Shown: positions 25,565 to 52,660, counted from the stretch's first letter. The stretch: 64,000 nucleotides of DNA from an uncultured Chloroflexia bacterium (GCA_963743005.1 CAVUNY010000006.1:109976-173975); one strand, 5' to 3'. Program-made: numbers and translations. The notes: a model not told the origin generated them from the letters alone.

Positions 25565-26002
25565 ATGAAATTCTTATATGATGATCTGCAAAAAATATTG
25601 GCGCTTCACAATAAATTTCTGTCCGGTGAAACCGGTGGAGAAAAGGCTGACCTTAAAGACGCTGACCTGTACGGCGCCAACCTGGAGGGTGCAAATCTGA
25701 AAGATGTAAACCTGGAAGGAGCCAACCTGAAGCGATCGGTTCTGATGAATGCTAACCTGGAGGGCGCTAACCTGGAACGAGCTAATTTCAAGCATGCCAT
25801 CCTTGTATGTGCGAATCTGCATGGGGCATGCTTGAAGTCTGCCGGGTTGAAAGGTGTCAATCTGGAAGGGGCTGATTTGCGCGGCGCGGATCTTTTGGGC
25901 GCAGACCTGGAGAATGCCGAACTGGTTGGGGTTATGTTTGATGACTTTACAAAATGGCCTGACCAATTCGACTTAAGGGCACTTTATCCAAAAGGCGCAT
26001 GA
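25565..26002 (+). CDS. Pentapeptide repeat protein.
   Basis: Tandem A(D/N)LxG repeats run through residues about 30-130. Confidence 0.85.
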
Positions 26003-27119: not shown

Positions 27120-27941
27120 TTAGAACGTCGGTTTAAGCCTCTGGATGGCTTGCTCGGCGTTCTTTTTCATATCCTGTTCTGAGGGCAGGCCTTGATACAT
27201 TGCCAAAAATTTGTTCAATTCAATGCCAGCTTCGCGCTCCTGTCCTTGTTGTAAATAGGACATCCCCAAAAAATAGTGCGGAATGTCCGCGTAAGGCGAG
27301 AGAATGGCCGCTCGCGAGGCGGCCCGGATAGCCTCTTGAGTGTCGTTCATATCTGACTGGGCAACCGCCAGGCGCAGATATGCGCTGTAATGATAGCGGT
27401 CCAACGCGACCGCCTGCTGTGCTTCGCTGAGGGCTTTGGCAAAATCTTCCTGGTTCGAATACACCAGGCTTATCATATAGTGAGCGCCAGCAGAGGCAGG
27501 TTCAAGTTGGATGGCCTGTTGCAATTCTTCCGCGCTCAAATCATATTTTTCCTGATCCAGATGGATGCTGGCGCGTTCGATCAAAATATCCGCTTTTCTG
27601 GCGCCTGCCTTTTCGGCCTCATCACATGTGGCTAACGCCAGGTCATAATTTTCTTGACGAGAAATTGCCTCTGCCAGGGACAGGTAGAAATTGGATGGGC
27701 GCTGCCCATCCTTGATCGCTTCTCTGGCAGCCTTTTCGGCTTCCGCGGGCAGGTTGGCGTCCAACAGCACATGGATGATCTGGCTGTGGTCGATGTCCAT
27801 TTTCTCTGAAATTCCAATAGCTGCTTGGATCTCGGCGATACTCGCGTCTACCTGGCGCGTCTCGATCAGTAAATCGGCCAGAAGCGCATGCGCTCCTGCC
27901 CAATCCGGGAAAAGCTCCACGGTCTCCCGGCTGAATTCCAC
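27120..27941 (-). CDS. TPR repeat protein.
   Basis: GTG start. The protein has several 34-aa TPR-like units. Confidence 0.6.
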   Translation of the reverse strand: MEFSRETVELFPDWAGAHALLADLLIETRQVDASIAEIQAAIGISEKMDIDHSQIIHVLLDANLPAEAEKAAREAIKDGQRPSNFYLSLAEAISRQENYDLALATCDEAEKAGARKADILIERASIHLDQEKYDLSAEELQQAIQLEPASAGAHYMISLVYSNQEDFAKALSEAQQAVALDRYHYSAYLRLAVAQSDMNDTQEAIRAASRAAILSPYADIPHYFLGMSYLQQGQEREAGIELNKFLAMYQGLPSEQDMKKNAEQAIQRLKPTF

Positions 27942-27984: not shown

Positions 27985-29820
27985 TCAGAAGCGCACCATC
28001 TGATTCTCTTGATCCAGGTTTGCTGCCTTTTTCAGCGAAGTTATCGCCTGGTCCAATTCATTTTTATCATACAGCGCCATCCCCAGGAGCATGTGGGCCT
28101 CCGCGGAGGACGGGTCGCTGACGACTGCCTGCTGGTAGGCGGCAATCTCTTCATCTAATTCCCCCCGGTCTTCATAAATATATCCCAGCCCCACGTAGGC
28201 ATCATATTCACGTTTATCAAATTCCAGCACCTTGCGGAAGTTGCTCTCGGCTTTTTCCAGGTCGCCCAGATCGTATGCCACCCATCCCAAGCCGAGATAG
28301 GCATAGGTATATGCCGGATCCAGCTGGATAGTGGCTTCCAATTCCTGCTCGGCTTTTTCAAGTTGATCGTCAAAATAATAAATTCTGCCCAACTCGTAAT
28401 GCGTGGCAGCTCGGTTGGGGTCCAGTTCGAGCGAGCGGGTGTATTGGGCGATGGCCTGCTGGTTGTCATCCAGTTGGTAATAGGCCCAGCCCATTTCAGC
28501 GTAAGCCAGCGCATAGTGTTGGTCTAACTGAACAGCAATTTTATATTCGGAGAGCGCTTTTTCATAGTCTTCGTTGTTTGTCCATTCGATACCCTGAATG
28601 TAGTGGTCGCGCGCCTCGATAAAATCCACCAGCGATTGCTGCGGGAAAACAAACAGCAGGCCGACCAGGCCGATAAACGCGGCAAACGGCGCCATTTTTC
28701 CAAACCTTAAGGAAGTCGGATTATTCCAATCATTTTGCCTCTGGGAACGGATTTCTTTGAGCAGCTTTTCCCAATGCAGATAAGGCCACGCGGCCACAAC
28801 CAACACCGCGGGAAAGATAAGTGGAAAGGCTGTCAAGAGGAGATGGTGAAAAAAGTTCCAGAACTCTATCCAACGCAGGTTCTGCGGTATTTCTAACAGG
28901 CCACCCCGGGTGAACACGGACCAGAGCATATTCCAAAATGCTGCCCCTGTCGGTAAAATCGGCTGGTCCTGGAGGATATTCAGGAAATTGCCAATCTGGC
29001 GCCCTTCCAGAAAGCTGTAAGCCGCCACGATTCCGCTCAGAAATGCCATTCCGAGGATCAGGATCGGGTTTTGATACGGGTGGCTCTCCAGTACTTTCTC
29101 CTGGATCTGGCGTAAAACAAAGATCACAACCAGGCTGATGACTGCCAACGGCATCCACAGCAGCAGTGGACCGAGGAAGATGATCTGATATCCGGTGGGA
29201 AGGTCAAAGACCTTATCTGCGTAATACGAAACAAAACCTGCCAGCCCGCTCAACAGGATCGCACCGGCAAACAGCCAGGGAGGACTAAAACGATTATATG
29301 AGTTAGATCCGGGCAGCGCATGGTAACGGCCAATCTCCTGCCGGCTCCAGAGGTCATCGACAAACTGCAAGCTACCTTCCAGGCAGCGTAAGGCGCCTGC
29401 ATTCAGGCCGCGTTCTTCATGCGCCTCCGCCAGGCTGCGCAGCAGCTTGACGTTGGATAATTTGCGCATCACCGACCCTTTTGCCAGGCGAAAGAGGGTT
29501 TGGGGAGTGTAGATCAGGCCAAACGGGAAACCGAGCCATCCGAAAGTGCCGCTGATGATCGCTGCCAGTAGCAGATAAAACGTGCGATGCTTCAGACACC
29601 AGCGGCCATGGAATTCCTTCCGGAAAGTTATGAAAATGAAGCTGAACACATATGGGTAGATCACCTGCCTGACCGAATCATCGTGGCAGCCGCATTTCTG
29701 GCAGGTAAGCGCCATGGAAAAGGGGGTATCGGAGGGTACAGTCATGATTCCAGCAGCATCCCTGAAGCTTTGATTGACGATTGATTTCCCGCCCAAACTA
29801 CGCCATCTCCGCCAACCCAT
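27985..29820 (-). CDS. Membrane protein with an N-terminal zinc-ribbon-like motif, polytopic region and C-terminal TPR array.
   Basis: A CQKCGC motif is followed by hydrophobic segments and a C-terminal run of TPR units with W-rich repeats. The start is uncertain (29820 or 29745). Confidence 0.55.
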   Translation of the reverse strand: MGWRRWRSLGGKSIVNQSFRDAAGIMTVPSDTPFSMALTCQKCGCHDDSVRQVIYPYVFSFIFITFRKEFHGRWCLKHRTFYLLLAAIISGTFGWLGFPFGLIYTPQTLFRLAKGSVMRKLSNVKLLRSLAEAHEERGLNAGALRCLEGSLQFVDDLWSRQEIGRYHALPGSNSYNRFSPPWLFAGAILLSGLAGFVSYYADKVFDLPTGYQIIFLGPLLLWMPLAVISLVVIFVLRQIQEKVLESHPYQNPILILGMAFLSGIVAAYSFLEGRQIGNFLNILQDQPILPTGAAFWNMLWSVFTRGGLLEIPQNLRWIEFWNFFHHLLLTAFPLIFPAVLVVAAWPYLHWEKLLKEIRSQRQNDWNNPTSLRFGKMAPFAAFIGLVGLLFVFPQQSLVDFIEARDHYIQGIEWTNNEDYEKALSEYKIAVQLDQHYALAYAEMGWAYYQLDDNQQAIAQYTRSLELDPNRAATHYELGRIYYFDDQLEKAEQELEATIQLDPAYTYAYLGLGWVAYDLGDLEKAESNFRKVLEFDKREYDAYVGLGYIYEDRGELDEEIAAYQQAVVSDPSSAEAHMLLGMALYDKNELDQAITSLKKAANLDQENQMVRF

Positions 29821-29906: not shown

Positions 29907-30365
29907 TTATTTTGTCGGCCGTTCCAGCAGCCGGTTGGTCAGGGCCGGGCCGACGATCATTACCAGCGAGGCGATCGAGCGGCCGGTTTGGGTAACCGCG
30001 AATACATCGGCATAACCGACCGAAGCGCAGGTGGCGATGTAATAGAATGCGTCGACATAACTGTTGATTTTGGGGTTGGAAGCCTTTTCTGCGGTATAAA
30101 AAGCCAGCGCCGCTGTGGCCAAAAACTCGAAAGCCGCATCCACCGGGCGGCGTTCAGTCCAATTCAGGACCTGGTTTTCCAGCCCTGCTTTTCGGGTCAG
30201 CAGTCCTTGCACGATATGGCTGACATCTTCGCCAGAAATCCCCAGCCAGGTTTTCAAGGCGTCTGGTTTTTCCGGCACCGGGCGGCTCTGAAGCAGCGCC
30301 GTTAAATCTGCCAGAGCGTTTTCTTGTTCGGCTGTGATTCTCGCTGCCATTGATGTTTTCAGCAT
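29907..30365 (-). CDS. Minimal two-TM K+-channel-like (Ion_trans_2-like) protein with a non-canonical filter SVGYAD.
   Basis: An AAAGAGG RBS precedes the ATG at 30365. TM1, a pore helix YYIATCASVGYADV and TM2 are present. Confidence 0.5.
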   Translation of the reverse strand: MLKTSMAARITAEQENALADLTALLQSRPVPEKPDALKTWLGISGEDVSHIVQGLLTRKAGLENQVLNWTERRPVDAAFEFLATAALAFYTAEKASNPKINSYVDAFYYIATCASVGYADVFAVTQTGRSIASLVMIVGPALTNRLLERPTK

Positions 30366-30420
30366 GGTTTGCCTCTTTCTAATTTTGCCTGCCCGGCGCC
30401 AGCGGCTGGGGAGGGGTGCA

Positions 30421-30981
30421 TCATGTTTGGCCGGTTTTTCGCCGGGCAAGCTCTTCTTCCAGGCCCGCCAGGAGCCGATCGATTTCGCGGTGGGCAGCGG
30501 CCAGGTTTTCGAGCGTTCTGGCGTCTTGCTTGCGCTTGGAAAGGTCGGCGATCTGGCGGTTGGTCTGGTCTGCGCGTTCTTGGATTCGTTCCATCACCTG
30601 CCGGGCATCCGCGGTGATCTGCGTCTGCTCCTGCCAACGCCGCGTAAGGTCTTCGAACTGCTTTGCCTTCTGAAATTTCTCGCGCACCATGCGGCGGGCC
30701 TGCTCGTCCTCGCCGCGCAGCAGCGCATGGTCAATGGCATTTTCAAGGGCAGCCAGTTCCGCGGCCGCCACAGCCCGTTCAGCCTCGCTCACTCTCTGGC
30801 GTTCTTCCAGACGGGCAACTTCCGGCGCCAGCCCATCCAGATAGGTCTGAATGGGCTGCAGGATGGAACCGCCCAGGAGCATCGTCTCACTTTCCTTGAG
30901 GTCATTTTCCCCAAACAGATCGTGCAGCAGGACCCGGGCGGCCCATCTGATTCTTTGCCATGCAAGCTGCCAGGCGTTCAT
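30421..30981 (-). CDS. PspA/IM30-family coiled-coil protein.
   Basis: The start overlaps the flotillin stop (ATGA). The coiled-coil core ALLRGEDEQARRMVREKFQKAKQFEDL resembles E. coli PspA [23 protein letters not shown]. Confidence 0.55.
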   Translation of the reverse strand: MNAWQLAWQRIRWAARVLLHDLFGENDLKESETMLLGGSILQPIQTYLDGLAPEVARLEERQRVSEAERAVAAAELAALENAIDHALLRGEDEQARRMVREKFQKAKQFEDLTRRWQEQTQITADARQVMERIQERADQTNRQIADLSKRKQDARTLENLAAAHREIDRLLAGLEEELARRKTGQT

Positions 30982-33023
30982 GCCGGGGTACTGGCCCGCA
31001 GGTACAGCTCTTCGAATGGCAGATCGTTAATCAGCGGTAAAACGGCCAGCGCTTTTTTAGCTTTTTCAACCAGCGCTTGATCTTGCCCAGAGACCTCATC
31101 CGCTAACGCAGCCAGAACTTCTTTAACGCTCATTTTGGCCAGGTCTTCAATTTCAAAGGTTTTTTCAACCAGTTTCACAAAGGCCGGCACCATCTCGGCC
31201 AGTTCGGCCAGGCCGACAGAATGGCCGTCTCCATTGCCGCCCTGCGCCACAACCGGCGTGGGGTTCGTCATCCGGCCAATCAAGCTGCGGCCCATTTCCT
31301 GGAGCGGCTGGGGTGCGGCTTTGATCACCTCACCCAACCCATCCGAAAATGTCACCAACCGCAGCAGGCTGGCGGCCGCATTCGGATCGCCGATCAGCTT
31401 CAGATCCATCGAGGCCACTGCTTTACCAAAGGCATCGGCGCGGGCAATCTCGATCCGCATTTTGGCATCCAGCTCGAGCCGGACTAATTCCACCCGCTGG
31501 GCCACGCCGTCGAAGGCGGCCAGGGCTTCGGCCCGGGCCTTCTCACTGTCGGCTTCGGCCAGACCTCGTGCCCGGATCGCTTCTGCTTCGCGCATCGCGG
31601 CTTCTGCTTTTGCTTTCATCACATCTGCTTCGGCCAGGCCGGCCGCGGAAGTGCGGGCCTTGGTCCCTTCGGCCCGCAGCTTTTCGGCTTCTACCTCGGC
31701 CTGGGCCTGAGTTCGTAAGGTCTCAGCCTGCTTAATCGCCGCATCGGCCTGGGCATTGGCCGTTTCATTCAACGCTTTGGCTTGCGCCTCGGCCTCGCGC
31801 TGTTTGCGCATCGCGTCTAATTCGATTTTGTTCTGCTGTTCAATGACCACCTTTTTAGCTTCTCGTTCAGCCTGGATCACCTGGATCTGGGCTTCACGCT
31901 GGGCCTGTTGGGTGGCCTCAATCGTTTTAAGCGCCTGGTTAGCCTGTTCGCGCTCGGCCGAAACCAGCAGGCGTTCTTTTTCTGCCGTCTCGCGTTTCTG
32001 CTGCTCCTGCAGCACCATGATCTGGCGCTGCTGTTCGGCCAACTCGATGGTCTGCTGGCGGATCACTTCGGTCCGGGCGACCTCTTGAGCCTTACGCTCG
32101 TTTTGGATGGCTAATTCCTGGTCGCGTTCCAATTCCGAGAGGGCGACGGCCCGCTCTTTGGCAATCCGAGCCAGCTCCTCCTTCTGGTTTTCTTCGAACT
32201 CTTTCTGGGCGGCCATGGCCCTTTCGACCGCCTGGATGGAACGCACTTCGCGCTCCTGGGTAACCGAGGCCAGGGCCAGCTGGCGATCCAACTCCAGGCG
32301 CTGCTTGGAAGCCTCGGTATCCCGTGTCTTGATCTCAATTTCCGCCGTACGTTCGATTTCGTTGCGTTCGCGCAGCGCTTGTTGGATCACCTGGGCGTTA
32401 GCCCGCGCCACCTGTGCGCCGAACACGTCGTCCGTACCGAAGGAGCCCTGGCGGGCGGCTCGCAGGGTAAGGATCGAGACGGATTCGAGCATCAAACCGT
32501 TCTCTTCCAGATCGGTCTTCAGCCGGTTCTGGACCTCCTGAATGAAATGTTCGCGTTCCTGGTGAAGGCTCATCAAAGTAAAGCTGGCAGCCACGTCACG
32601 CAGCGCGCCATCCAGCTTGGCATCCACCAGCTGCTTGACCGCGTTCGCGTCGACCTGCTTGCCGCCGATGGTGCGGGCAGCGTCGACGATCCCTTCCATG
32701 GTCGGATTAACTTTGATGTAGAAAATTGCCTTGATGTCGGCGTACTGCGGGTCGATGGTCAACAGCGCATTCTGCTCAGTACGCTCAATTTCAATCGCCA
32801 TCGTGCCCAGATCGACCCAGGTGATTTCGTGAATACTCTTGAATACCCATGCGCCGCCGTTCATCACCACCTTGGGTGGGTTGTTGGTTTTTCCCGAAAA
32901 TCCGCCCGTGCGGACAAAGGCACGGTTGGCCGGGGTCTTGACGTAAGCGTGGATAATCGAGCGGGCCAATACCAGCAGGATCATAACCACTAATAAAGCA
33001 GCGACAAGAAAAATCCATTCCAT
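30978..33023 (-). CDS. Flotillin family (SPFH/band-7) protein.
   Basis: An N-terminal TM and SPFH domain are followed by a long EA/Q-rich coiled coil. The protein is 681 aa. Confidence 0.85.
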   Translation of the reverse strand: MEWIFLVAALLVVMILLVLARSIIHAYVKTPANRAFVRTGGFSGKTNNPPKVVMNGGAWVFKSIHEITWVDLGTMAIEIERTEQNALLTIDPQYADIKAIFYIKVNPTMEGIVDAARTIGGKQVDANAVKQLVDAKLDGALRDVAASFTLMSLHQEREHFIQEVQNRLKTDLEENGLMLESVSILTLRAARQGSFGTDDVFGAQVARANAQVIQQALRERNEIERTAEIEIKTRDTEASKQRLELDRQLALASVTQEREVRSIQAVERAMAAQKEFEENQKEELARIAKERAVALSELERDQELAIQNERKAQEVARTEVIRQQTIELAEQQRQIMVLQEQQKRETAEKERLLVSAEREQANQALKTIEATQQAQREAQIQVIQAEREAKKVVIEQQNKIELDAMRKQREAEAQAKALNETANAQADAAIKQAETLRTQAQAEVEAEKLRAEGTKARTSAAGLAEADVMKAKAEAAMREAEAIRARGLAEADSEKARAEALAAFDGVAQRVELVRLELDAKMRIEIARADAFGKAVASMDLKLIGDPNAAASLLRLVTFSDGLGEVIKAAPQPLQEMGRSLIGRMTNPTPVVAQGGNGDGHSVGLAELAEMVPAFVKLVEKTFEIEDLAKMSVKEVLAALADEVSGQDQALVEKAKKALAVLPLINDLPFEELYLRASTPA

Positions 33024-33085
33024 TGCATACCTCCAGTTGATAAGATCAGGATACGATTGGGACGTTGGTCCCAGTTAGTTTGAGT

Positions 33086-33853
33086 TCAGCCCGGTTGGCT
33101 GGTGTGAATCACGGTATATAGATGTTTTTCCGGATCGTAATTGATGAGAATTACCTCCTCACCGCGGCGGATGGGCTGCTCTGCCTGGGTAACGGCGAAC
33201 ACGCTGATCAGTGTGCCAGCCGCGTCCCGCAGATGGACCATCCCGTAGCGTTGGTCGACAAACGGGCTGATCACGGTCCCTCGCCGGCCGACCATGGCAT
33301 GGGCTGATGTGACGGTGGTGCTGACCGGGGGAAGGGTCCGGCCAATCGCCCGGGCGATACGTGAACTGACCAGGCTGCCCAATCCCAGGGAGACCGCCAG
33401 CGCGGCTGCCATGATTGGAACCGGGTAGGTGCCGAGAACTCTGACGGCAAATCCATTGAAGATCCAACCGGTCAGCCCCACCGAGCCGAACAGCAGCAGC
33501 AAGGTCACCAGCAGCGGCGCTCGCCCTACACCCAGGTAAGCCAGGATCGAAAAGCCCAATTCTGCGGCGGTTTCACCGGCGGAATGGACGTCACCCGTTT
33601 CTCCCAGGTCTAAATCGTGATCCAGATGACCCTCCAGGTCATGATCCAAATCGCCATCCAGATCGTGATCCAATTCATGGTCAAAGTCGCCATCCAGGTC
33701 GTGATCCAGGTCCCCCTCCGCCTCAGAGTCCGGATCGTGATCGCCGCCCAGGCCAATCCACTGCAGAGCCGCCATCAGCAGGCATACCGCCAGCAGAAAG
33801 GTGAACGGCAGGTTATACCAGGCCAGCATAAAGGTCAGGATTGTAGACAACAT
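33086..33853 (-). CDS. NfeD-family membrane protein (flotillin partner, YuaF/YqiJ-like) with an internal (DHDL)n acidic His-rich repeat.
   Basis: TM segments and a C-terminal OB-fold-like region are present. Residues about 38-88 are DLDHDLDGDFDHELDHDLDGDLDHDLEGHLDHDLDL. Confidence 0.7.
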   Translation of the reverse strand: MLSTILTFMLAWYNLPFTFLLAVCLLMAALQWIGLGGDHDPDSEAEGDLDHDLDGDFDHELDHDLDGDLDHDLEGHLDHDLDLGETGDVHSAGETAAELGFSILAYLGVGRAPLLVTLLLLFGSVGLTGWIFNGFAVRVLGTYPVPIMAAALAVSLGLGSLVSSRIARAIGRTLPPVSTTVTSAHAMVGRRGTVISPFVDQRYGMVHLRDAAGTLISVFAVTQAEQPIRRGEEVILINYDPEKHLYTVIHTSQPG

Positions 33854-34035
33854 GATATAGCAGCCTTCCTTTCACCGCTTCAAGCCTGCCGGACGACCGG
33901 AGCGTGGAACAGAAAATGGATTTCTGGTTGCCAGGAACTCCGTGCAGGCAGAACCGTGCCGCCCGCCGGGGTATTCCTGGGTTTATGGGTTGATTATTCG
34001 CCGGGGTGTGCCCGGTCTAATTTGGATACGAAGAT

Positions 34036-34311
34036 TTATTTACCTGCAGGGGGCGGGAGGCCTCCGCCATGTAAATGGCGGATTTCTTCGGATTCCCTCT
34101 GGTCATCTGTCGTGGTAGAACTGGTCGGGCGGAGCGGTTTCATAGGGGGTTGAGGTTGGGTGTTGAGTTCGGGTTTCCGGAAAGCATCCAGAGTTGCCTG
34201 GCGGGTGAGCGCGTAAACCAGGTATTGGTTTAAGGAAACTCCCTCGTCGCGCGCCAGGATCTCTAATTGCTGGTGAAGTGCTTCCGGAAGCCGTACGGTC
34301 AGCCTGCCCAT
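34036..34311 (-). CDS. Ribbon-helix-helix (CopG/HicB-C-terminal-like) DNA-binding protein, antitoxin-like, with a disordered tail.
   Basis: The N-terminus MGRLTVRLPEALHQQLEILARDEGVSLNQYLVYAL is RHH-like. No partner toxin ORF is present on either side. Confidence 0.55.
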   Translation of the reverse strand: MGRLTVRLPEALHQQLEILARDEGVSLNQYLVYALTRQATLDAFRKPELNTQPQPPMKPLRPTSSTTTDDQRESEEIRHLHGGGLPPPAGK

Positions 34312-34693
34312 CCTCGTCTCCTTGAAAAACAGCTAGCATCGACTTTGAATCATTTAGTCTGTCGAATGTGACGTCAGTATAGCACCGTATATGGTGCAAA
34401 TCATTAAACGGATGACAAGGATTTGTCAATTCGCCTGCGAAGGGCCAACGCATCCCCGCTATCCGCACGACCTAAATCATGAGTGTTTTGAGTGGGCTTT
34501 GTTAAAGTAGAAAAGCTATAGTCTCATGTATCATTATGAAAGGGTGCGTCACGGCGACACATCCTTTCAAATGGGCATATATCCTTGTTCTTCCCAGGTC
34601 CCTGGAGTATAGCTTGTATCTGTCAGGTCCCAAACACCTGCCAGGAGCATAATAATTCCTTGAACACGGTGTGGTGTAATTGCGTACACCCTT

Positions 34694-35203
34694 TTATCTT
34701 CTTTGATAATATCGGCAGCAACCAATGGTTTTAAGTGGATAGACCTGTCTGGTCATGTTCGAAACCAATACATCCATTAGTTGATTGGCAGTTATGAGAT
34801 TTTTTAACAAGGCTAAAAAAATTTCTAACCTTCGGCGATTGCCCACTGATGACAATACTTTTTCGACCATCTGGTTATCGTTCTGGCGAAGCAGATAATC
34901 TGTTTGAACTACAATGGACCGAATAGATTGCATCGTAAATTCGCCTTGCCCTATGGAATAAGTGCCCGCATAGGTAACTGCGCCGCTTTCGCCATTTTCC
35001 TGGGTGTACTTTACCAACTGCGCCAATAGATCGTTAAGCTGATCACGTCCTTCCTGAGCCAATACTCGATTGCTCACTGAAGGAGTCCATGGTTCAACCC
35101 TTGGGAAAATGTTTTTTATTAAGTGCTTCTTGATGCCGCTTAGTTCCTCTTTAATAATTATAGTTTCGGGGACATCTGTCAAGAGGCTCCTGGTCTCTCT
35201 CAT
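34694..35203 (-). CDS. Hypothetical protein (169 aa) in a low-GC islet.
   Basis: It is an ORF with no recognisable motifs; the local GC is clearly below the window average. Confidence 0.4.
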   Translation of the reverse strand: MRETRSLLTDVPETIIIKEELSGIKKHLIKNIFPRVEPWTPSVSNRVLAQEGRDQLNDLLAQLVKYTQENGESGAVTYAGTYSIGQGEFTMQSIRSIVVQTDYLLRQNDNQMVEKVLSSVGNRRRLEIFLALLKNLITANQLMDVLVSNMTRQVYPLKTIGCCRYYQRR

Positions 35204-35302
35204 GAGATTGTTTAAATCGGCTTTAGCCTTATTCTGGCTAACAGATCATTGACCTGTTACATAGATAGGGCCAGGCGCTCACTTCTATTTTAAGTGATTC
35301 GC

Positions 35303-36310
35303 TTACAGTAAGGTCTTTAGAAATGCTACAACTATTATTCCAAGAGATCCGACGGCTATTCCCCATGTGAGCAGGACGCTAGGTACGATTAAAATGATTT
35401 TGTAAAAATTCGACCAGGTTAAAACGGGCTCTTTTTTAAATTCGGCCAAAAACCAGAGGATATAAGGCCAGGCTACCAGAAAAAAACCAAAACTGAAGGA
35501 AATCATTTTTACAAATAAAAGAGTTGCATTGCTGCTTGTCGGCAACACACCGAACAGGATAAAGCCAAAACTAATCAGGCCAATGATCAAAGTCTGCGGG
35601 CGCCAACCCAGTTTTTGAATGGAGAAGAAAGTATCGTTTGAAGAATTATCCGCAAACCATGTCCCTGGAAATTCGTTTACAAATGCGAGTGCCTGTTTTT
35701 TCAGCTTGCCTGGAATATGCAGAGTGATTAGGGGGTAGGGTTCTTCTTCATATCGGATCGTCATCAGGCTGTTTCGTTCACTTACCGTTAAGTTTACCCA
35801 GGCCACTTCGGTTCTTGGAATACGGATACTGTTTCGCGGTTCCCCTTTGTCTGTGCAATCTGCGACGATTAAATCGTTCTTCGTGACAGCATAGAATTTG
35901 TATTTGGTAGAATCCTGATCCAGGCCCAGGACAGCCGTGATAAGGTCTCGGTCTGGACGGATAGCTCTTGCCACCGTTAAAGACACGGCTTGATCTAAAT
36001 GGGCAGCGTTCTTAAAATGCATTGGCAAGGGGCGTGCGAGATTGGCATTGATACTGGTGATCTGGCCTCCTTTTGCCGGATGCTGCCAGACCGCTAAGCC
36101 TGCGCTATAAATCATTTGTCCCAGGTAAAGTATGCAAATCAAATACCAGATGACAAGTGAAGGAATGAGGAAGAAGCCGGTAATCGTCAAAGCCAATCCG
36201 ATCCATACGATTGCGGCTTGCTTGCGTTTCCCAAAAAACCATACAGCCAGCCCCGGAATCATTGAAAAAAAGATGGCAAATGCGGGAGTTTCGAGCCGAT
36301 TTTTGAGCAT
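35303..36310 (-). CDS. Hypothetical polytopic membrane protein (335 aa) in a low-GC islet.
   Basis: It has about 3 TM segments at the N-terminus, a soluble middle domain of about 150 aa, and 3-4 TM segments at the C-terminus. Confidence 0.45.
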   Translation of the reverse strand: MLKNRLETPAFAIFFSMIPGLAVWFFGKRKQAAIVWIGLALTITGFFLIPSLVIWYLICILYLGQMIYSAGLAVWQHPAKGGQITSINANLARPLPMHFKNAAHLDQAVSLTVARAIRPDRDLITAVLGLDQDSTKYKFYAVTKNDLIVADCTDKGEPRNSIRIPRTEVAWVNLTVSERNSLMTIRYEEEPYPLITLHIPGKLKKQALAFVNEFPGTWFADNSSNDTFFSIQKLGWRPQTLIIGLISFGFILFGVLPTSSNATLLFVKMISFSFGFFLVAWPYILWFLAEFKKEPVLTWSNFYKIILIVPSVLLTWGIAVGSLGIIVVAFLKTLL

Positions 36311-48848: not shown

Positions 48849-50297
48849 TCACATTGGCAAAGAACCGACAGCCAATTTAATATTTTCGACAACTGCACCA
48901 ACATCTGAGGTCATAGGAACCGCAGTAAGAACAATTTCTATATTGCGCCCATTCGCAGGCAATGAGGCGTGCTGATAAAGCCTTCCGCGACGCTTAAGCG
49001 ATTCCCAAGTCTGGTTCTGACAGGGGTAAATGAGACAAGCAACAACCCGTTGAGATGAATTCAAAGACGAATATGCTAAAACTTGCAGCAAATCCTGTCG
49101 GTGCTGTTCTTGGATTTCCTTCTCGATTTGTCCCCAATTGGTTGAATTAAATTCTTCCCAATGGCGTTTATATTTGGCGTCAAAAATAATGGTTACATCA
49201 TCACGCTCTAAAATTACATCGGGTAAAAGATATTTTTGCGTTCCAATAAAGGGGTTGTCCCAATGGATCGGAGTAAGAGTTTCTCTCTTTCTGCCCGTTC
49301 GTAAAACACCCCCTGTGTCTCTGGCTAAACGGGTAACCAATGTTTCAACCCATGCTTCAAAAAATGTATCCATCGGAAGAACCCAAGGCAACCCTTGCAA
49401 ATCTGCCAATCCTGCTAATCCACGGTCTTCTACTGTCCATTCAACTGCTTGAATCCCTTCACGAAAAGCTTCAATTCTCATTGAGCCAGTTAACCAAGCC
49501 TGAAGCATCTCGGAAGACGGCCTTTGCGGAGGGACAGCGGCCACATGCCTGATCAAAGATTGGCAAAAATCTATTAAAGAAAGTACAGCTCCGGTTAAAT
49601 TGCGCTGACTTTCCAGTCCAGCTAATAGTTTCCGCAAAGTAAAATGTACGGCGGCTCTTAGCGTGCGATCATCCCGCAAATCGGGATATTGACATGATAT
49701 TTGCAGAAATTGAGCATTCGGGATTTTCCTTGTTGCGTAATCAGACCAATCCACTGTACCCTTTGGCGCTGGTTGAATGGTTTGAATTAACTCAAACCGC
49801 CGTTCTAATTGATCCAGTAATGTGCGAACACGGATCAGGACAATGGATGAAAGAACCCAGGGGGGAACTTTTCTTTCGGTACCGGGGATTAAGGGTAATT
49901 TCAAAAGAGTGGGCGTAATCCGCCAGCCCATTTGCGCCAACATACTTCCTATTCCTGCCCATTCAAAGCGTGGTTTTATCACCATACCATATTCTGGTCT
50001 ACCGCTGGTAGGTGCAAGTAATGGAAATGCCCCGGCCTTAATTCCAGTTTTTAGCACTAACCAAATATTTTGGCCATCGTAATCCTGTGAAGCCTGAACA
50101 TCAAAGTTGTTTAGAATTCCCCTATTTTGGTCAATAAATTGATTCGCAAGTCTGGCTGCCATAGCTTGCGGATCACGTGGCAAATCACCGCGGATAAAAC
50201 GCGTTGCATTTAACCTTTGCTCACCCGAATCGACGCATTCAAAGATTAGTGGGTTGGTCTTTATTAGAATTGGAGAGGTTAAAGACTTTTTAGCCAT
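48849..50297 (-). CDS. mcrC: McrC-like nuclease subunit of a type IV (modification-dependent) restriction system.
   Basis: A C-terminal PD-(D/E)xK is present (PDVILERDDVTIIFDAKYK). It is paired and overlapping with the McrB-like gene in a low-GC region. Confidence 0.7.
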   Translation of the reverse strand: MAKKSLTSPILIKTNPLIFECVDSGEQRLNATRFIRGDLPRDPQAMAARLANQFIDQNRGILNNFDVQASQDYDGQNIWLVLKTGIKAGAFPLLAPTSGRPEYGMVIKPRFEWAGIGSMLAQMGWRITPTLLKLPLIPGTERKVPPWVLSSIVLIRVRTLLDQLERRFELIQTIQPAPKGTVDWSDYATRKIPNAQFLQISCQYPDLRDDRTLRAAVHFTLRKLLAGLESQRNLTGAVLSLIDFCQSLIRHVAAVPPQRPSSEMLQAWLTGSMRIEAFREGIQAVEWTVEDRGLAGLADLQGLPWVLPMDTFFEAWVETLVTRLARDTGGVLRTGRKRETLTPIHWDNPFIGTQKYLLPDVILERDDVTIIFDAKYKRHWEEFNSTNWGQIEKEIQEQHRQDLLQVLAYSSLNSSQRVVACLIYPCQNQTWESLKRRGRLYQHASLPANGRNIEIVLTAVPMTSDVGAVVENIKLAVGSLPM

Positions 50298-51745
50298 TGC
50301 ATATAAGCGAGGATATGTTCTGAAAATCCCGACACATACCCCTGGGCCAAATATTCTTCCAGAAGAGGATACAAGGTTGTTTGCAAAACCTGGATTGCAC
50401 GGTCTTGGTCTTTTTCGAGAAAATACGCATGACCCGGCATTAAATTGAGGGCATCATCACTGGCGTATTCAATAAATATCGACAAAAGTTCTTGAAATGC
50501 TTGCTGCATTAAAGAACACGCGAGTCTTTGAACTACCTCTGTTTGGGGCCATAGTTTTATAAAAGCAAACCGTCTTCGAATCGCAACATCCAAGATGGCA
50601 ATGCTGCGGTCTGAACTATTCATGGTTCCCAGAATGTGGAGATTGGTAGGAAGCCAAAGTTCACTACCAATCGGATCGTTAAAATCATGAGCGAGGCTCA
50701 CTTGCCGCTTTCCGTTATCTTGCGCTTCAAAAAGAAAGATGGCTTCGCCAAGTACCTTTGCTAGATCTGCTCGATTGATTTCATCAATATGTAAGAGATA
50801 GTCTTTTTGAGGTTCCTTCAACGCTTCAACGACTGCTTCAAGCAAATAACCGCGTTTCGGCTTAAAACTAAAACCCAAACCACTGCTGGATTCGGTGGGC
50901 GATAATCCACCAACAAAATTTTCATAGGTTGTGTTCGGGTGAAATTGGATCGATTTGCCATTCCCCTGATATCGTTTGGCCAACAGGTCAAGCGCCAGCA
51001 TGGTTTTACCAGTCCCAGGGGGACCCTCCAAAACCACATATCGGCGGTTCTTTAAGATCGTTTCGATTTCAATTCTTGAAGTACCTGGCAAGAGTGATTC
51101 AAAATATTTACTCCGAATCTGTTCGGCTTCTTTCTCAAAACGAGATAATGGCATAAATCCACGTTCAGAAAACATGAGATCCAGGAAAGCGGGAACCGCT
51201 TTGAGAGTCGCATCTGGATGATCCACTGGAGGGCAAAAAATACCATATAGAACCTTACCGTACCGGGAAAATACTGACTGATAAGGAGCAAAGTTGCGTT
51301 TTACGTGTTCTGGCATGTCAAGATCAACTCGGGCAGGGTCCTGTTTTGCCCAGGCTACCAGTTTCCCTTTACCATATTCTTTGTTTAGCCAATTACAGAT
51401 CGCTGCAGTTTTTCGTGCATGACCTGGACGGCTCAAAATATTTTCGTCAGGGCTCAATCCTTGTGTCCCAATGACCATTGCAACCAGACAGGGTGCTCCC
51501 TCAACAGGAAAAATAACAAAGCTCATTCCACCATACGCACCTGAGTCGGGATTGGCTGGGTGAATATAAGCCGCAAAACTGACTCCATCTCCTGTGGACA
51601 TTTTCGGAGCCCTGAGTTTAACAAACTCTTTTGCTCGACTGGGATAACGTCCATCCTGAGTTCCAAACAATTCTTCGAAAGCTTGCTGGTTACTTCCTGT
51701 CCAATCCAAAGGGGAAGATTGAATAATTTCAATTAGTTTCTTCAT
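50279..51745 (-). CDS. mcrB: McrB-family AAA+ GTPase subunit with an unassigned roughly 190 aa N-terminal domain.
   Basis: Walker A LEGPPGTGKT, Walker B LLHIDEINRAD, and the McrB-signature MNSSDRSIAILDVAIRRRF are present. The N-terminal domain was not recognised. Confidence 0.8.
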   Translation of the reverse strand: MKKLIEIIQSSPLDWTGSNQQAFEELFGTQDGRYPSRAKEFVKLRAPKMSTGDGVSFAAYIHPANPDSGAYGGMSFVIFPVEGAPCLVAMVIGTQGLSPDENILSRPGHARKTAAICNWLNKEYGKGKLVAWAKQDPARVDLDMPEHVKRNFAPYQSVFSRYGKVLYGIFCPPVDHPDATLKAVPAFLDLMFSERGFMPLSRFEKEAEQIRSKYFESLLPGTSRIEIETILKNRRYVVLEGPPGTGKTMLALDLLAKRYQGNGKSIQFHPNTTYENFVGGLSPTESSSGLGFSFKPKRGYLLEAVVEALKEPQKDYLLHIDEINRADLAKVLGEAIFLFEAQDNGKRQVSLAHDFNDPIGSELWLPTNLHILGTMNSSDRSIAILDVAIRRRFAFIKLWPQTEVVQRLACSLMQQAFQELLSIFIEYASDDALNLMPGHAYFLEKDQDRAIQVLQTTLYPLLEEYLAQGYVSGFSEHILAYMQWLKSL

Positions 51746-51975
51746 TGACCTTTTCCTTTAGTTGGTTTTCTTTTGGCATCAAGAGTTTTAGGGTTTTCGT
51801 TACACCCACGTCCGATTAACTATACCCTGAATATAGAGATACATTGTAAGGCGACGAGTGCGAAGCGATTGTTCGGAATAACCCCTCATCATTCCTCAAT
51901 TATCACCTGTGGGGGACACCCTGTATTATAGTAAAGCCTTCGCGGGCTCATTCACGCTCAGCAGGAGGTACGGGT

Positions 51976-52446
51976 ATGGCGACTCTGCATTTGATGGTGG
52001 GACTGCCCTGTTCGGGGAAAACAACCCTGGCGCGCAGGCTTGAGATCGAGCGCGCGGCGCTGCGCCTGACGCCGGATGAATGGCAGCTGCGCCTCTTCGG
52101 CCAGGACGCGGAGGCGCCGGAACATGACACCCGGCACAGCATGATCGAAGCCATGCTGTGGGATATCGCCGCCCGGGCGCTGGTTTTGGGCACGAACGTG
52201 ATCCTGGATTACGGCTTCTGGGCGCGCGAAGAGCGCGAAGACTTCCGCTCGCGGGCGCGGGAACTGGGCGCGAGCAGCGAAATCCATTTTCTGGATACGC
52301 CGGAAGATGAGCTGCTGCTGCGGCTCGCGGCGCGCAATGCACAGCCGGAGCCGGGAGCTTTTCATATCCCCGCGGAGAGCATGCTGCCCTGGATCGCGTT
52401 TTTCCAGCGGCCGGGGCCGGATGAACTGGGGCGCAGAGAGGTTTGA
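51976..52446 (+). CDS. P-loop NTPase (AAA_33/zeta-toxin-like predicted kinase).
   Basis: The P-loop is GLPCSGKTTLARRL; the protein is 156 aa. Confidence 0.6.
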   Translation: MATLHLMVGLPCSGKTTLARRLEIERAALRLTPDEWQLRLFGQDAEAPEHDTRHSMIEAMLWDIAARALVLGTNVILDYGFWAREEREDFRSRARELGASSEIHFLDTPEDELLLRLAARNAQPEPGAFHIPAESMLPWIAFFQRPGPDELGRREV

Positions 52447-52500
52447 ACCGGTCTGGCGGCGATGATATAAATGGTGCGCGGAGCTCACCCTACCAGACTG

Positions 52501-52571
52501 CTGGCGGTCGTGGATTCGAACCACGCTTAAGAGGTCCAAGGCCTCTTGTCCTGCCGCTAGACCAACCGCCA
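52501..52571 (-). tRNA. tRNA-Gln (anticodon UUG), U1:A72. The anticodon loop reads CCUUGGA, so position 33 is C.
   Basis: Manual fold: acceptor UGGCGGU/ACCGCCA, T-arm CGUGG-UUCGAAU-CCACG, anticodon stem AGAGG/CCUCU. Confidence 0.7.
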
Positions 52572-52589
52572 ATATGGAACAATTTCGAG

Positions 52590-52660
52590 CTGGCGGTCGT
52601 GGATTCGAACCACGATTACAAAGTCCAGAGCTTCGTGTCCTGCCGTTAGACCAACCGCCA
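52590..52660 (-). tRNA. tRNA-Gln (anticodon CUG), U1:A72; anticodon loop CUCUGGA.
   Basis: It has the same body as the neighbouring tRNA-Gln, differing in the anticodon stem-loop and variable region. Confidence 0.75.

Follow-up and report, generated by a model that had tools for sequence, protein, structure and literature searches.

A minimal pore gene conserved with NfeD and flotillin, joined by a PspA-like gene in Chloroflexota, as a candidate membrane-organising module

We analysed a stretch of DNA of 64,000 nucleotides (nt) from an uncultured Chloroflexia bacterium (GCA_963743005.1, CAVUNY010000006.1:109976-173975). This whole stretch is here called the window, and positions are counted from its first letter. 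On its minus strand, at 29907-33853, four genes follow each other. They encode a short NfeD protein, a flotillin, a divergent relative of PspA and a minimal pore protein with two transmembrane (TM) helices. The order of these genes is conserved in Chloroflexota, and related pores of other phyla are also encoded behind an NfeD-flotillin pair. As the best explanation, held with middling confidence, we propose a conserved operon whose products act together as a complex that organises the membrane. This complex would have its own cation pore under the control of flotillin and NfeD, and PspA-type protection would be coupled to it in Chloroflexota. The physical complex, the conduction of ions, their selectivity and the role in stress are what we infer.

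Results

Arrangement of the four genes

The listing of open reading frames (ORFs) places four of them in succession at 29907-33853, as an earlier note on this DNA had claimed. The short NfeD, of the YqiJ/YuaF type, is encoded at 33086..33853 (minus strand; 255 amino acids, aa). The flotillin-type SPFH protein follows at 30978..33023 (minus; 681 aa; PF01145). Next comes a divergent short protein of the PspA/IM30/Vipp1 family (ESCRT-III) at 30421..30981 (minus; 186 aa). The last gene encodes the minimal 2-TM P-loop pore protein (29907..30365, minus; 152 aa; PF07885). Long ORFs, significant family matches and conserved synteny put the four genes far beyond chance. The tRNA and Rfam scans found nothing near them.

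The earlier note also described the genes as translationally coupled. This holds for one junction, where the ATGA at 30978-30981 joins the flotillin stop and the PspA-like start in an overlap. It is the sole overlapping junction among the four genes of the window, and the other two have spacers. NfeD and flotillin are separated by 62 nt, with a GGAGG ribosome-binding site ahead of the flotillin ATG. The ATG of the pore gene, at 30365, lies 55 nt past the PspA-like stop and has AGAGG 6 nt upstream. The gene starts most probably at this ATG, rather than at the TTG at 30449 given in the ORF list (29907-30449). The product from the ATG (152 aa) is 100% identical to the database protein P0001, and the N-termini of the homologues agree with this start.

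Conservation of the gene order in Chloroflexota

The genome loci come from a pattern scan with one genome per GTDB species. It gave 53 loci, almost all in Chloroflexota metagenome-assembled genomes (Anaerolineae, Thermoflexales and Ardenticatenaceae). We searched these loci with the window proteins and with a hidden Markov model (HMM) of the PspA-like protein. NfeD, flotillin, PspA-like and pore genes lie in the same order and on the same strand, and this four-gene order recurs in about 35-40 Chloroflexota genomes. The joint conservation proposed in the earlier note is thus borne out. Unsupervised clustering of the ORFs in the 53 loci gave the pore in 49, flotillin in 40, the PspA-like protein in 39 and NfeD in 34. 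With the HMM, built from locus-encoded relatives, the PspA-like gene was found in 41 loci; a word-based homologue search with the window protein had returned only seven relatives. The NfeD gene stands upstream of flotillin in the 34 genome loci and in most metagenome loci. Other recurrent ORF clusters lie over these genes, on the opposite strand or in overlapping frames. We read them as shadow ORFs. One locus of the pattern scan, L053, was discarded as an ordinary Kch channel of the TIGYGD/TrkA type.

In 12 loci, a canonical full-length PspA (PF04012 5e-19, ~228 aa) is encoded directly after the pore. These loci are L002 (10459-11145), L003 (10506-11186), L007, L010, L015, L016, L018, L020, L025, L030, L043 and L051. 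Here, two PspA paralogues flank the pore. The window has no canonical PspA after its pore gene.

The pores of this clade share an N-terminal domain with the pattern 'LTxEQxxAL...WLG'. It is present in all 37 assessable genome loci with a PspA-like gene. Only two loci, L027 and L032, have the domain without a PspA-like gene. Neither the domain nor the gene was found in the distant genome loci or in the 80 metagenome loci described below.

A core of NfeD, flotillin and pore in several phyla

We scanned 1.84 billion representatives with the pore profile using HMMER. At E<=1e-3 it returned 1131 proteins, of which 187 reached E<=1e-10. Their representatives form a wider family of proteins of about 150 aa, present in several phyla and marked by the motif S-V-G-Y-x-[D/N]. 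The core of the family reads 'NPKV..DAl.yiST.lSVGY.d.fa.T..GK....vmt.GPal'. Most members end in a C-terminal 'LDxILxEL' helix and do not have the N-terminal domain of Chloroflexota.

A scan of metagenomes with the wider alignment gave 80 loci, 58 of them with enough upstream sequence to be assessed. Flotillin lies directly upstream of the pore, on the same strand, in 51 of the 58. The median distance between both genes is a 14-nt overlap, counting from the first possible start codon. NfeD is ahead of flotillin wherever the contig extends that far. The remaining assessable loci consist of four with a divergent NfeD-flotillin pair upstream and three with none. No PspA-like gene was found in the 80 metagenome loci, nor any further conserved neighbour of the pore. 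Among the genome loci, the NfeD-flotillin-pore arrangement is also present in L048 (Armatimonadetes), L049 (Polyangiaceae), L054 and L059, with flotillin directly before the pore.

Because flotillin stands directly ahead of the pore in 51 of 58 loci that have no PspA, we take the evolutionary core to be NfeD-flotillin-pore and the PspA-like gene to be a lineage-specific insertion. In this account, the Chloroflexota clade put a PspA paralogue between flotillin and pore. In the same clade, the pore lost the C-terminal helix of the family and gained the N-terminal cytoplasmic domain.

The divergent arrangement was observed in the metagenome loci L096, L122, L132, L135 and L136, where the NfeD and flotillin genes are on the strand opposite the pore (L136 is too short for flotillin). 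The linkage is retained in these loci, and the co-transcription is not.

The pore protein and its filter

The pore protein matches PF07885 (Ion_trans_2) with 33.3 bits, above the cut-off of 22.5. The codons of its filter, S115-V-G-Y-A-D120, were read directly in the sequence at 30006..30023 (minus strand). Both results agree with the channel-like 2-TM protein with an SVGYAD filter that the earlier note had described. According to the note, such a filter would not be canonically K+-selective, and the protein may serve as a leak or release channel. In the public databases, proteins of this kind have generic annotations ('two pore domain potassium channel family protein', 'ion channel', 'hypothetical protein').

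The AF2 model of the protein has a pLDDT (predicted local distance difference test) of 83.4. It shows N-terminal helices at residues 12-26, 36-41 and 45-72, which would form a cytoplasmic helical domain of ~72 aa. TM1 (74-93), the pore helix (103-116) and TM2 (126-147) follow, and the protein ends at residue 152. Neither a ligand-binding nor a voltage-sensing domain was detected in the Pfam scan. The family profile can be aligned to the pores of KcsA and KvLm. The model superposes on KcsA at ~2.5 A root-mean-square deviation over 73 columns. In a search of viral folds, minimal K+ channels of viruses matched only weakly and at the level of the fold.

The filter, at residues 115-120, is SVGYAD in 118 of the 120 best homologues and SVGYAN in the other two. 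This constancy points to an alanine under selection and not to an error. The K+ signature T/S-V-G-Y/F-G-D has two glycines, and here Ala occupies the position of the second one. In KcsA, the second filter Gly has a left-handed backbone conformation. We set the KcsA residues on the profile alignment, taking their numbers to be T75, G79, E71 and G99. Compared with KcsA, the window pore has Ser at T75, Ala at G79 and Ala at E71. The Trp-Trp cuff of KcsA is Tyr-Tyr in the window pore, whose pore helix has one residue fewer. The hinge glycine (G99) is retained as G139 and is followed by an invariant Pro.

We counted the residues at the second-Gly position in 158 representatives of the wider family. 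They are Ala (71), Ser (40), Asp (13), Gly (11), Thr (9), His (8), Cys (5) and Val (1). Little or no variation was seen at V, G and Y of the filter or at the Gly-Pro hinge. Among the wider family representatives P0147-P0293, a varied residue beside a fixed S-V-G-Y and hinge suggests a subfamily-specific tuning of the outer filter site.

In the model, the inner helix stops 8 residues past the Gly-Pro hinge, and the protein ends 5 residues later. With an inner helix so short past the hinge, a bundle crossing is unlikely. The pore is thus probably devoid of a KcsA-like bundle-crossing gate.

NfeD, flotillin and the PspA-like protein

The earlier note had called the first two genes an NfeD/flotillin pair, and the family searches agree. 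NfeD matches PF21001 (YqiJ_N) with E=7.7e-11 and 42.6 bits (Pfam cut-off 23), and its gene lies directly upstream of the SPFH gene. It has an N-terminal TM helix, an acidic and His-rich loop, two further TM helices and a probable C-terminal beta domain of the NfeD (OB-like) type. The best PDB match of the family profile (A4, 32 orthologues) is the soluble domain of B. subtilis YuaF (2k14). This match is weak (E=0.0019) and falls on the C-terminal beta-rich part. The loop between TM1 and TM2 contains a (D-H-D-L)n run, encoded by a 12-nt tandem repeat of 6.7 copies (33633..33712, minus strand; Tandem Repeats Finder). All the NfeD relatives linked to a flotillin and pore have an Asp/His-rich loop, of ~10 to >100 aa. 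The composition of the loop resembles that of metal-binding loops, and the second-best PDB match of A4 is the His-rich loop of ZnT7.

Flotillin matches PF01145 (Band_7) with E=1.3e-10 and 42.0 bits (cut-off 23.6). Its translation presents a hydrophobic N-terminal anchor, the SPFH domain, a long coiled coil rich in E, A, Q and R, and a C-terminal region. The family profile A7 matches only human flotillin-1 (1e-12) and flotillin-2 (6e-7) in the PDB. The profile was needed for this result, as phmmer with the single sequence gave no PDB match. By these profile matches, the SPFH protein of the window is assigned to the flotillin subfamily and not to stomatin, HflK/C or prohibitin. PF15975 ('Flot') was not detected in the window protein, and it was detected in the homologue of L049. 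An orthologue of B. subtilis FloT (NCBIfam NF058507) was ruled out, with 50.7 bits against an equivalog cut-off of 700.

The third assignment, to PspA, is only in part confirmed by HMM searches. Alone, the window protein scores 21.3 bits against PF04012 (PspA_IM30), below the cut-off of 33.9. The family profile (32 members) does match Vipp1/PspA with E=1e-17, over Vipp1 residues 1 (helix a0) to 188. PF04012 is matched by 27 of the 32 members, and P0123, a homologue with 50% identity to the window protein, carries this domain. The AF2 model (pLDDT 84) has helices at 3-22, 41-88 and 92-185, corresponding to helix a0, a linker and a long hairpin. All its 13 best Foldseek matches in the PDB are Vipp1/PspA. 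The model fits the hairpin of E. coli PspA (4whe) at 1.2 A over 101 columns. Compared with a canonical PspA of ~220 aa, the 186-aa protein does not have the C-terminal helices (a5 onward) used in polymer contacts. On the profile and the model, we place it in the PspA/IM30/Vipp1 family, at the family-profile level only.

Neighbouring genes

Two ORFs with tetratricopeptide repeats (TPRs), at 27120-27941 and 27985-29820 (minus strand), lie downstream of the four genes. In the larger protein (611 aa), the N-terminal half is hydrophobic and probably spans the membrane, and the TPRs are C-terminal. The earlier note had reported these two proteins. They are present, and they are not part of a conserved unit: we rejected the TPR genes as members of the module, since no TPR homologue is conserved beside it in the 53 loci.

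About 180 nt upstream of the NfeD gene, an ORF at 34036-34311 (minus) resembles a HicB/ribbon-helix-helix antitoxin (PF05534, E=2.2e-9). The G+C content is low at 34001-36000 (0.454) and at 50001-52000 (0.443), compared with ~0.55-0.60 elsewhere in the window. The former stretch has ORFs at 34694-35203 and 35303-36310, both without a Pfam match. The latter adjoins two tRNA-Gln genes (52500-52660). Both stretches may be acquired islands. Finally, the translation of an ORF at 25565-26002 (plus strand) shows a run of pentapeptide-like repeats in the ORF list.

Discussion

Relation to known systems

The NfeD-flotillin pair of the window resembles E. coli yqiJ-yqiK and B. subtilis yuaF-floT. In all of them, an NfeD gene of the YqiJ/YuaF type is directly upstream of a flotillin-type SPFH gene, and the flotillins share the anchor, the SPFH domain and an EA-rich coiled coil. 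Unlike these systems, the window has an NfeD loop expanded to a long Asp/His repeat. To our knowledge, the yqiJ-yqiK and yuaF-floT operons contain neither a pore gene nor a PspA gene.

The pore shares with channels of the KcsA/Kcv type the 2-TM module, the pore helix, the aromatic cuff, S/T-V-G-Y, an Asp after the filter and the hinge Gly. Its very short inner helix recalls the viral Kcv. It differs from these channels in the variable second Gly, the Gly-Pro hinge, the linkage to flotillin and an added helix, N-terminal in Chloroflexota or C-terminal in other phyla.

Operons that join PspA to band-7/flotillin and YqiJ/YuaF genes have been catalogued (Ravi et al. 2024, PMC11237479; Popp et al. 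2022, PMC9239133). In the pspA-ydjGHI operon of B. subtilis, an SPFH protein links PspA to the membrane (Scholz et al. 2021, PMC8581546). These neighbourhoods share PspA, SPFH and NfeD-type TM genes with the window. They also share an implication, namely that ESCRT-III-like protection would be tied to microdomain scaffolds. In the published operons, the partners of PspA are a CesT/Tir chaperone, an AAA+ ATPase or YdjG/H, and no 2-TM pore gene is listed. In the window, on the other hand, PspA is a short divergent paralogue placed between flotillin and pore. The term 'ion channel' appears nowhere in PMC11237479 or PMC9239133, and the sole channel there is an unrelated ligand-gated K+ channel in a polyamine operon.

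Previous works studied SPFH proteins that surround membrane proteins. Flotillin assembles as a membrane-bound cage (PMC11260169), stomatin forms domes around AQP1 and UT-B (PMC12407830), and FliL rings encircle stator channels (PMC8794807). An SPFH oligomer regulates or encloses a channel in the pairs of stomatin with ASIC, AQP1 or UT-B, MEC-2 with MEC-4, and FliL with MotAB (PMC12407830, PMC12344292, PMC8794807). Those pairs are not encoded in one operon with a minimal P-loop pore. The SPFH protein of the window is of the flotillin type, and its complex with the pore is a proposed one.

Pairs of NfeD and flotillin, and links between PspA and flotillin, are thus already known. A pore family tied to flotillin operons, and its four-gene form in Chloroflexota, were not found in the literature searched. 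Our full-text search, whose coverage did not include subscription journals, gave no paper on an SVGYAD or GYA filter or on an operon of flotillin and a K+ channel. It returned only an unrelated string 'GYAD'. The full-text search on G79A with KcsA found no paper either. The absence of a match in the literature is not proof of novelty.

Proposed mechanism and alternative explanations

We propose that the flotillin SPFH protein and the YqiJ/YuaF-type NfeD form a scaffold. The 152-aa protein would be a tetrameric-type P-loop pore module and a dedicated partner or client of this assembly. Flotillin and NfeD are taken as its working partners because, in several phyla, the genes for the pores of the wider family come right after an NfeD-flotillin pair. 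The most likely place of the pore is a membrane patch organised or covered by the flotillin assembly. The most likely ions to pass through it are K+ or, with a relaxed selectivity, monovalent cations, under the control of the assembly. With inner helices so short, either the filter or a partner would have to do the gating. For Chloroflexota, we further propose that the PspA-like protein docks on the N-terminal cytoplasmic domain of the pore. In this way, it would link PspA-type membrane protection to the flotillin-pore unit.

Some observations weigh against this explanation. With its second glycine replaced, the filter is no longer canonical and might not conduct at all. The pore is not beside flotillin in L032, L044, L047, L050, L056/57, L121 and L134. 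The scan for promoter and terminator consensus sequences gave no clear operon boundaries, so the term operon rests on spacing, strand and conservation. Likewise, the PspA-like clade of the window stops before the C-terminal 'REDRLAAREE' (EQIARREDRLAAREE) segment that most relatives keep. With this segment missing, it is uncertain whether the window copy can polymerise.

The main rival is a non-conducting protein, derived from a channel and used as a membrane anchor or adaptor. It would hold flotillin in place or seed its assembly and, in Chloroflexota, do the same for the PspA-like protein, much as PspB/C, LiaI or YdjG/H anchor PspA homologues. We consider it unlikely, with real points in its favour. 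Many different residues replace the second filter Gly across the family, and the inner helix is very short. The N-terminal domain co-occurs with the PspA-like gene in Chloroflexota, as would be expected of a docking site. Moreover, PspA homologues generally need membrane anchors (PMC8581546, PMC9239133). However, an anchor would have no need for the S-V-G-Y core, the aromatic pair of the pore helix, the Asp/Asn that follows the filter and the Gly-Pro hinge, all of them invariant or nearly so across phyla. The predicted fold is also that of an intact pore module. A second alternative is an ordinary K+ channel for potassium homeostasis, an uncoupled neighbour of the flotillin operon that tolerates the change of Gly to Ala. 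Its fold and most of its signature residues are K+-channel-like, and the public label is 'potassium channel family protein'. We give little credence to this reading. The pore genes adjoin NfeD-flotillin in Chloroflexota, Armatimonadetes, Myxococcota and 55 of the 58 assessable metagenome loci, often with overlapping genes. In addition, the protein is without a ligand-binding or voltage-sensing domain, and the canonical GYG is present in only 11 of 158 representatives.

A conflict module, of the kind of anti-phage abortive infection or toxin-like, seems very improbable. In it, a triggered pore would depolarise the membrane, with flotillin and PspA restraining it. Small pore-forming effectors are common in defence systems, and both the HicB-like antitoxin ORF and a stretch of low G+C are found shortly upstream of the genes. 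Against this, PADLOC found no meaningful match in the four proteins or their neighbours; among the four, the only match was a weak one of 12.4 bits, between the PspA-like protein and the LmuB coiled coil. The order of the genes is fixed, they are conserved vertically across the phylum, and their identity declines gradually. The flanking genes vary among genomes and include no recurrent defence neighbours.

A bolder form of the proposed flotillin-pore complex can be stated, which we find possible and somewhat doubtful. The S-V-G-Y-x-[D/N] proteins would be unrecognised dedicated clients of flotillin. Their tetramers would lie inside or under NfeD-flotillin cages, and these cages would gate the flux of ions. 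In Chloroflexota, the N-terminal domain would recruit a truncated ESCRT-III protein, the PspA-like one. If true, this would be the first operon-encoded prokaryotic holo-complex of an SPFH protein and a channel. In Chloroflexota, a single machine would then scaffold microdomains, pass ions and repair membranes.

Significance

It is an open question how membrane proteins are affected by the SPFH cages (flotillin, stomatin, HflK/C) that enclose them. So far, it has been approached through large eukaryotic complexes or HflK/C-FtsH. An operon of three or four genes with a pore of 150 aa would be small enough to co-express, and would open this question to structural and electrophysiological work. 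For the K+ filter, the pore family also offers an experiment made by nature, in which S-V-G-Y is fixed and the second glycine changes to Ala, Ser, Asp, His, Thr or Cys. Finally, the Chloroflexota module would give a PspA/ESCRT-III paralogue a specific partner in the membrane; such partners are known for few PspA homologues.

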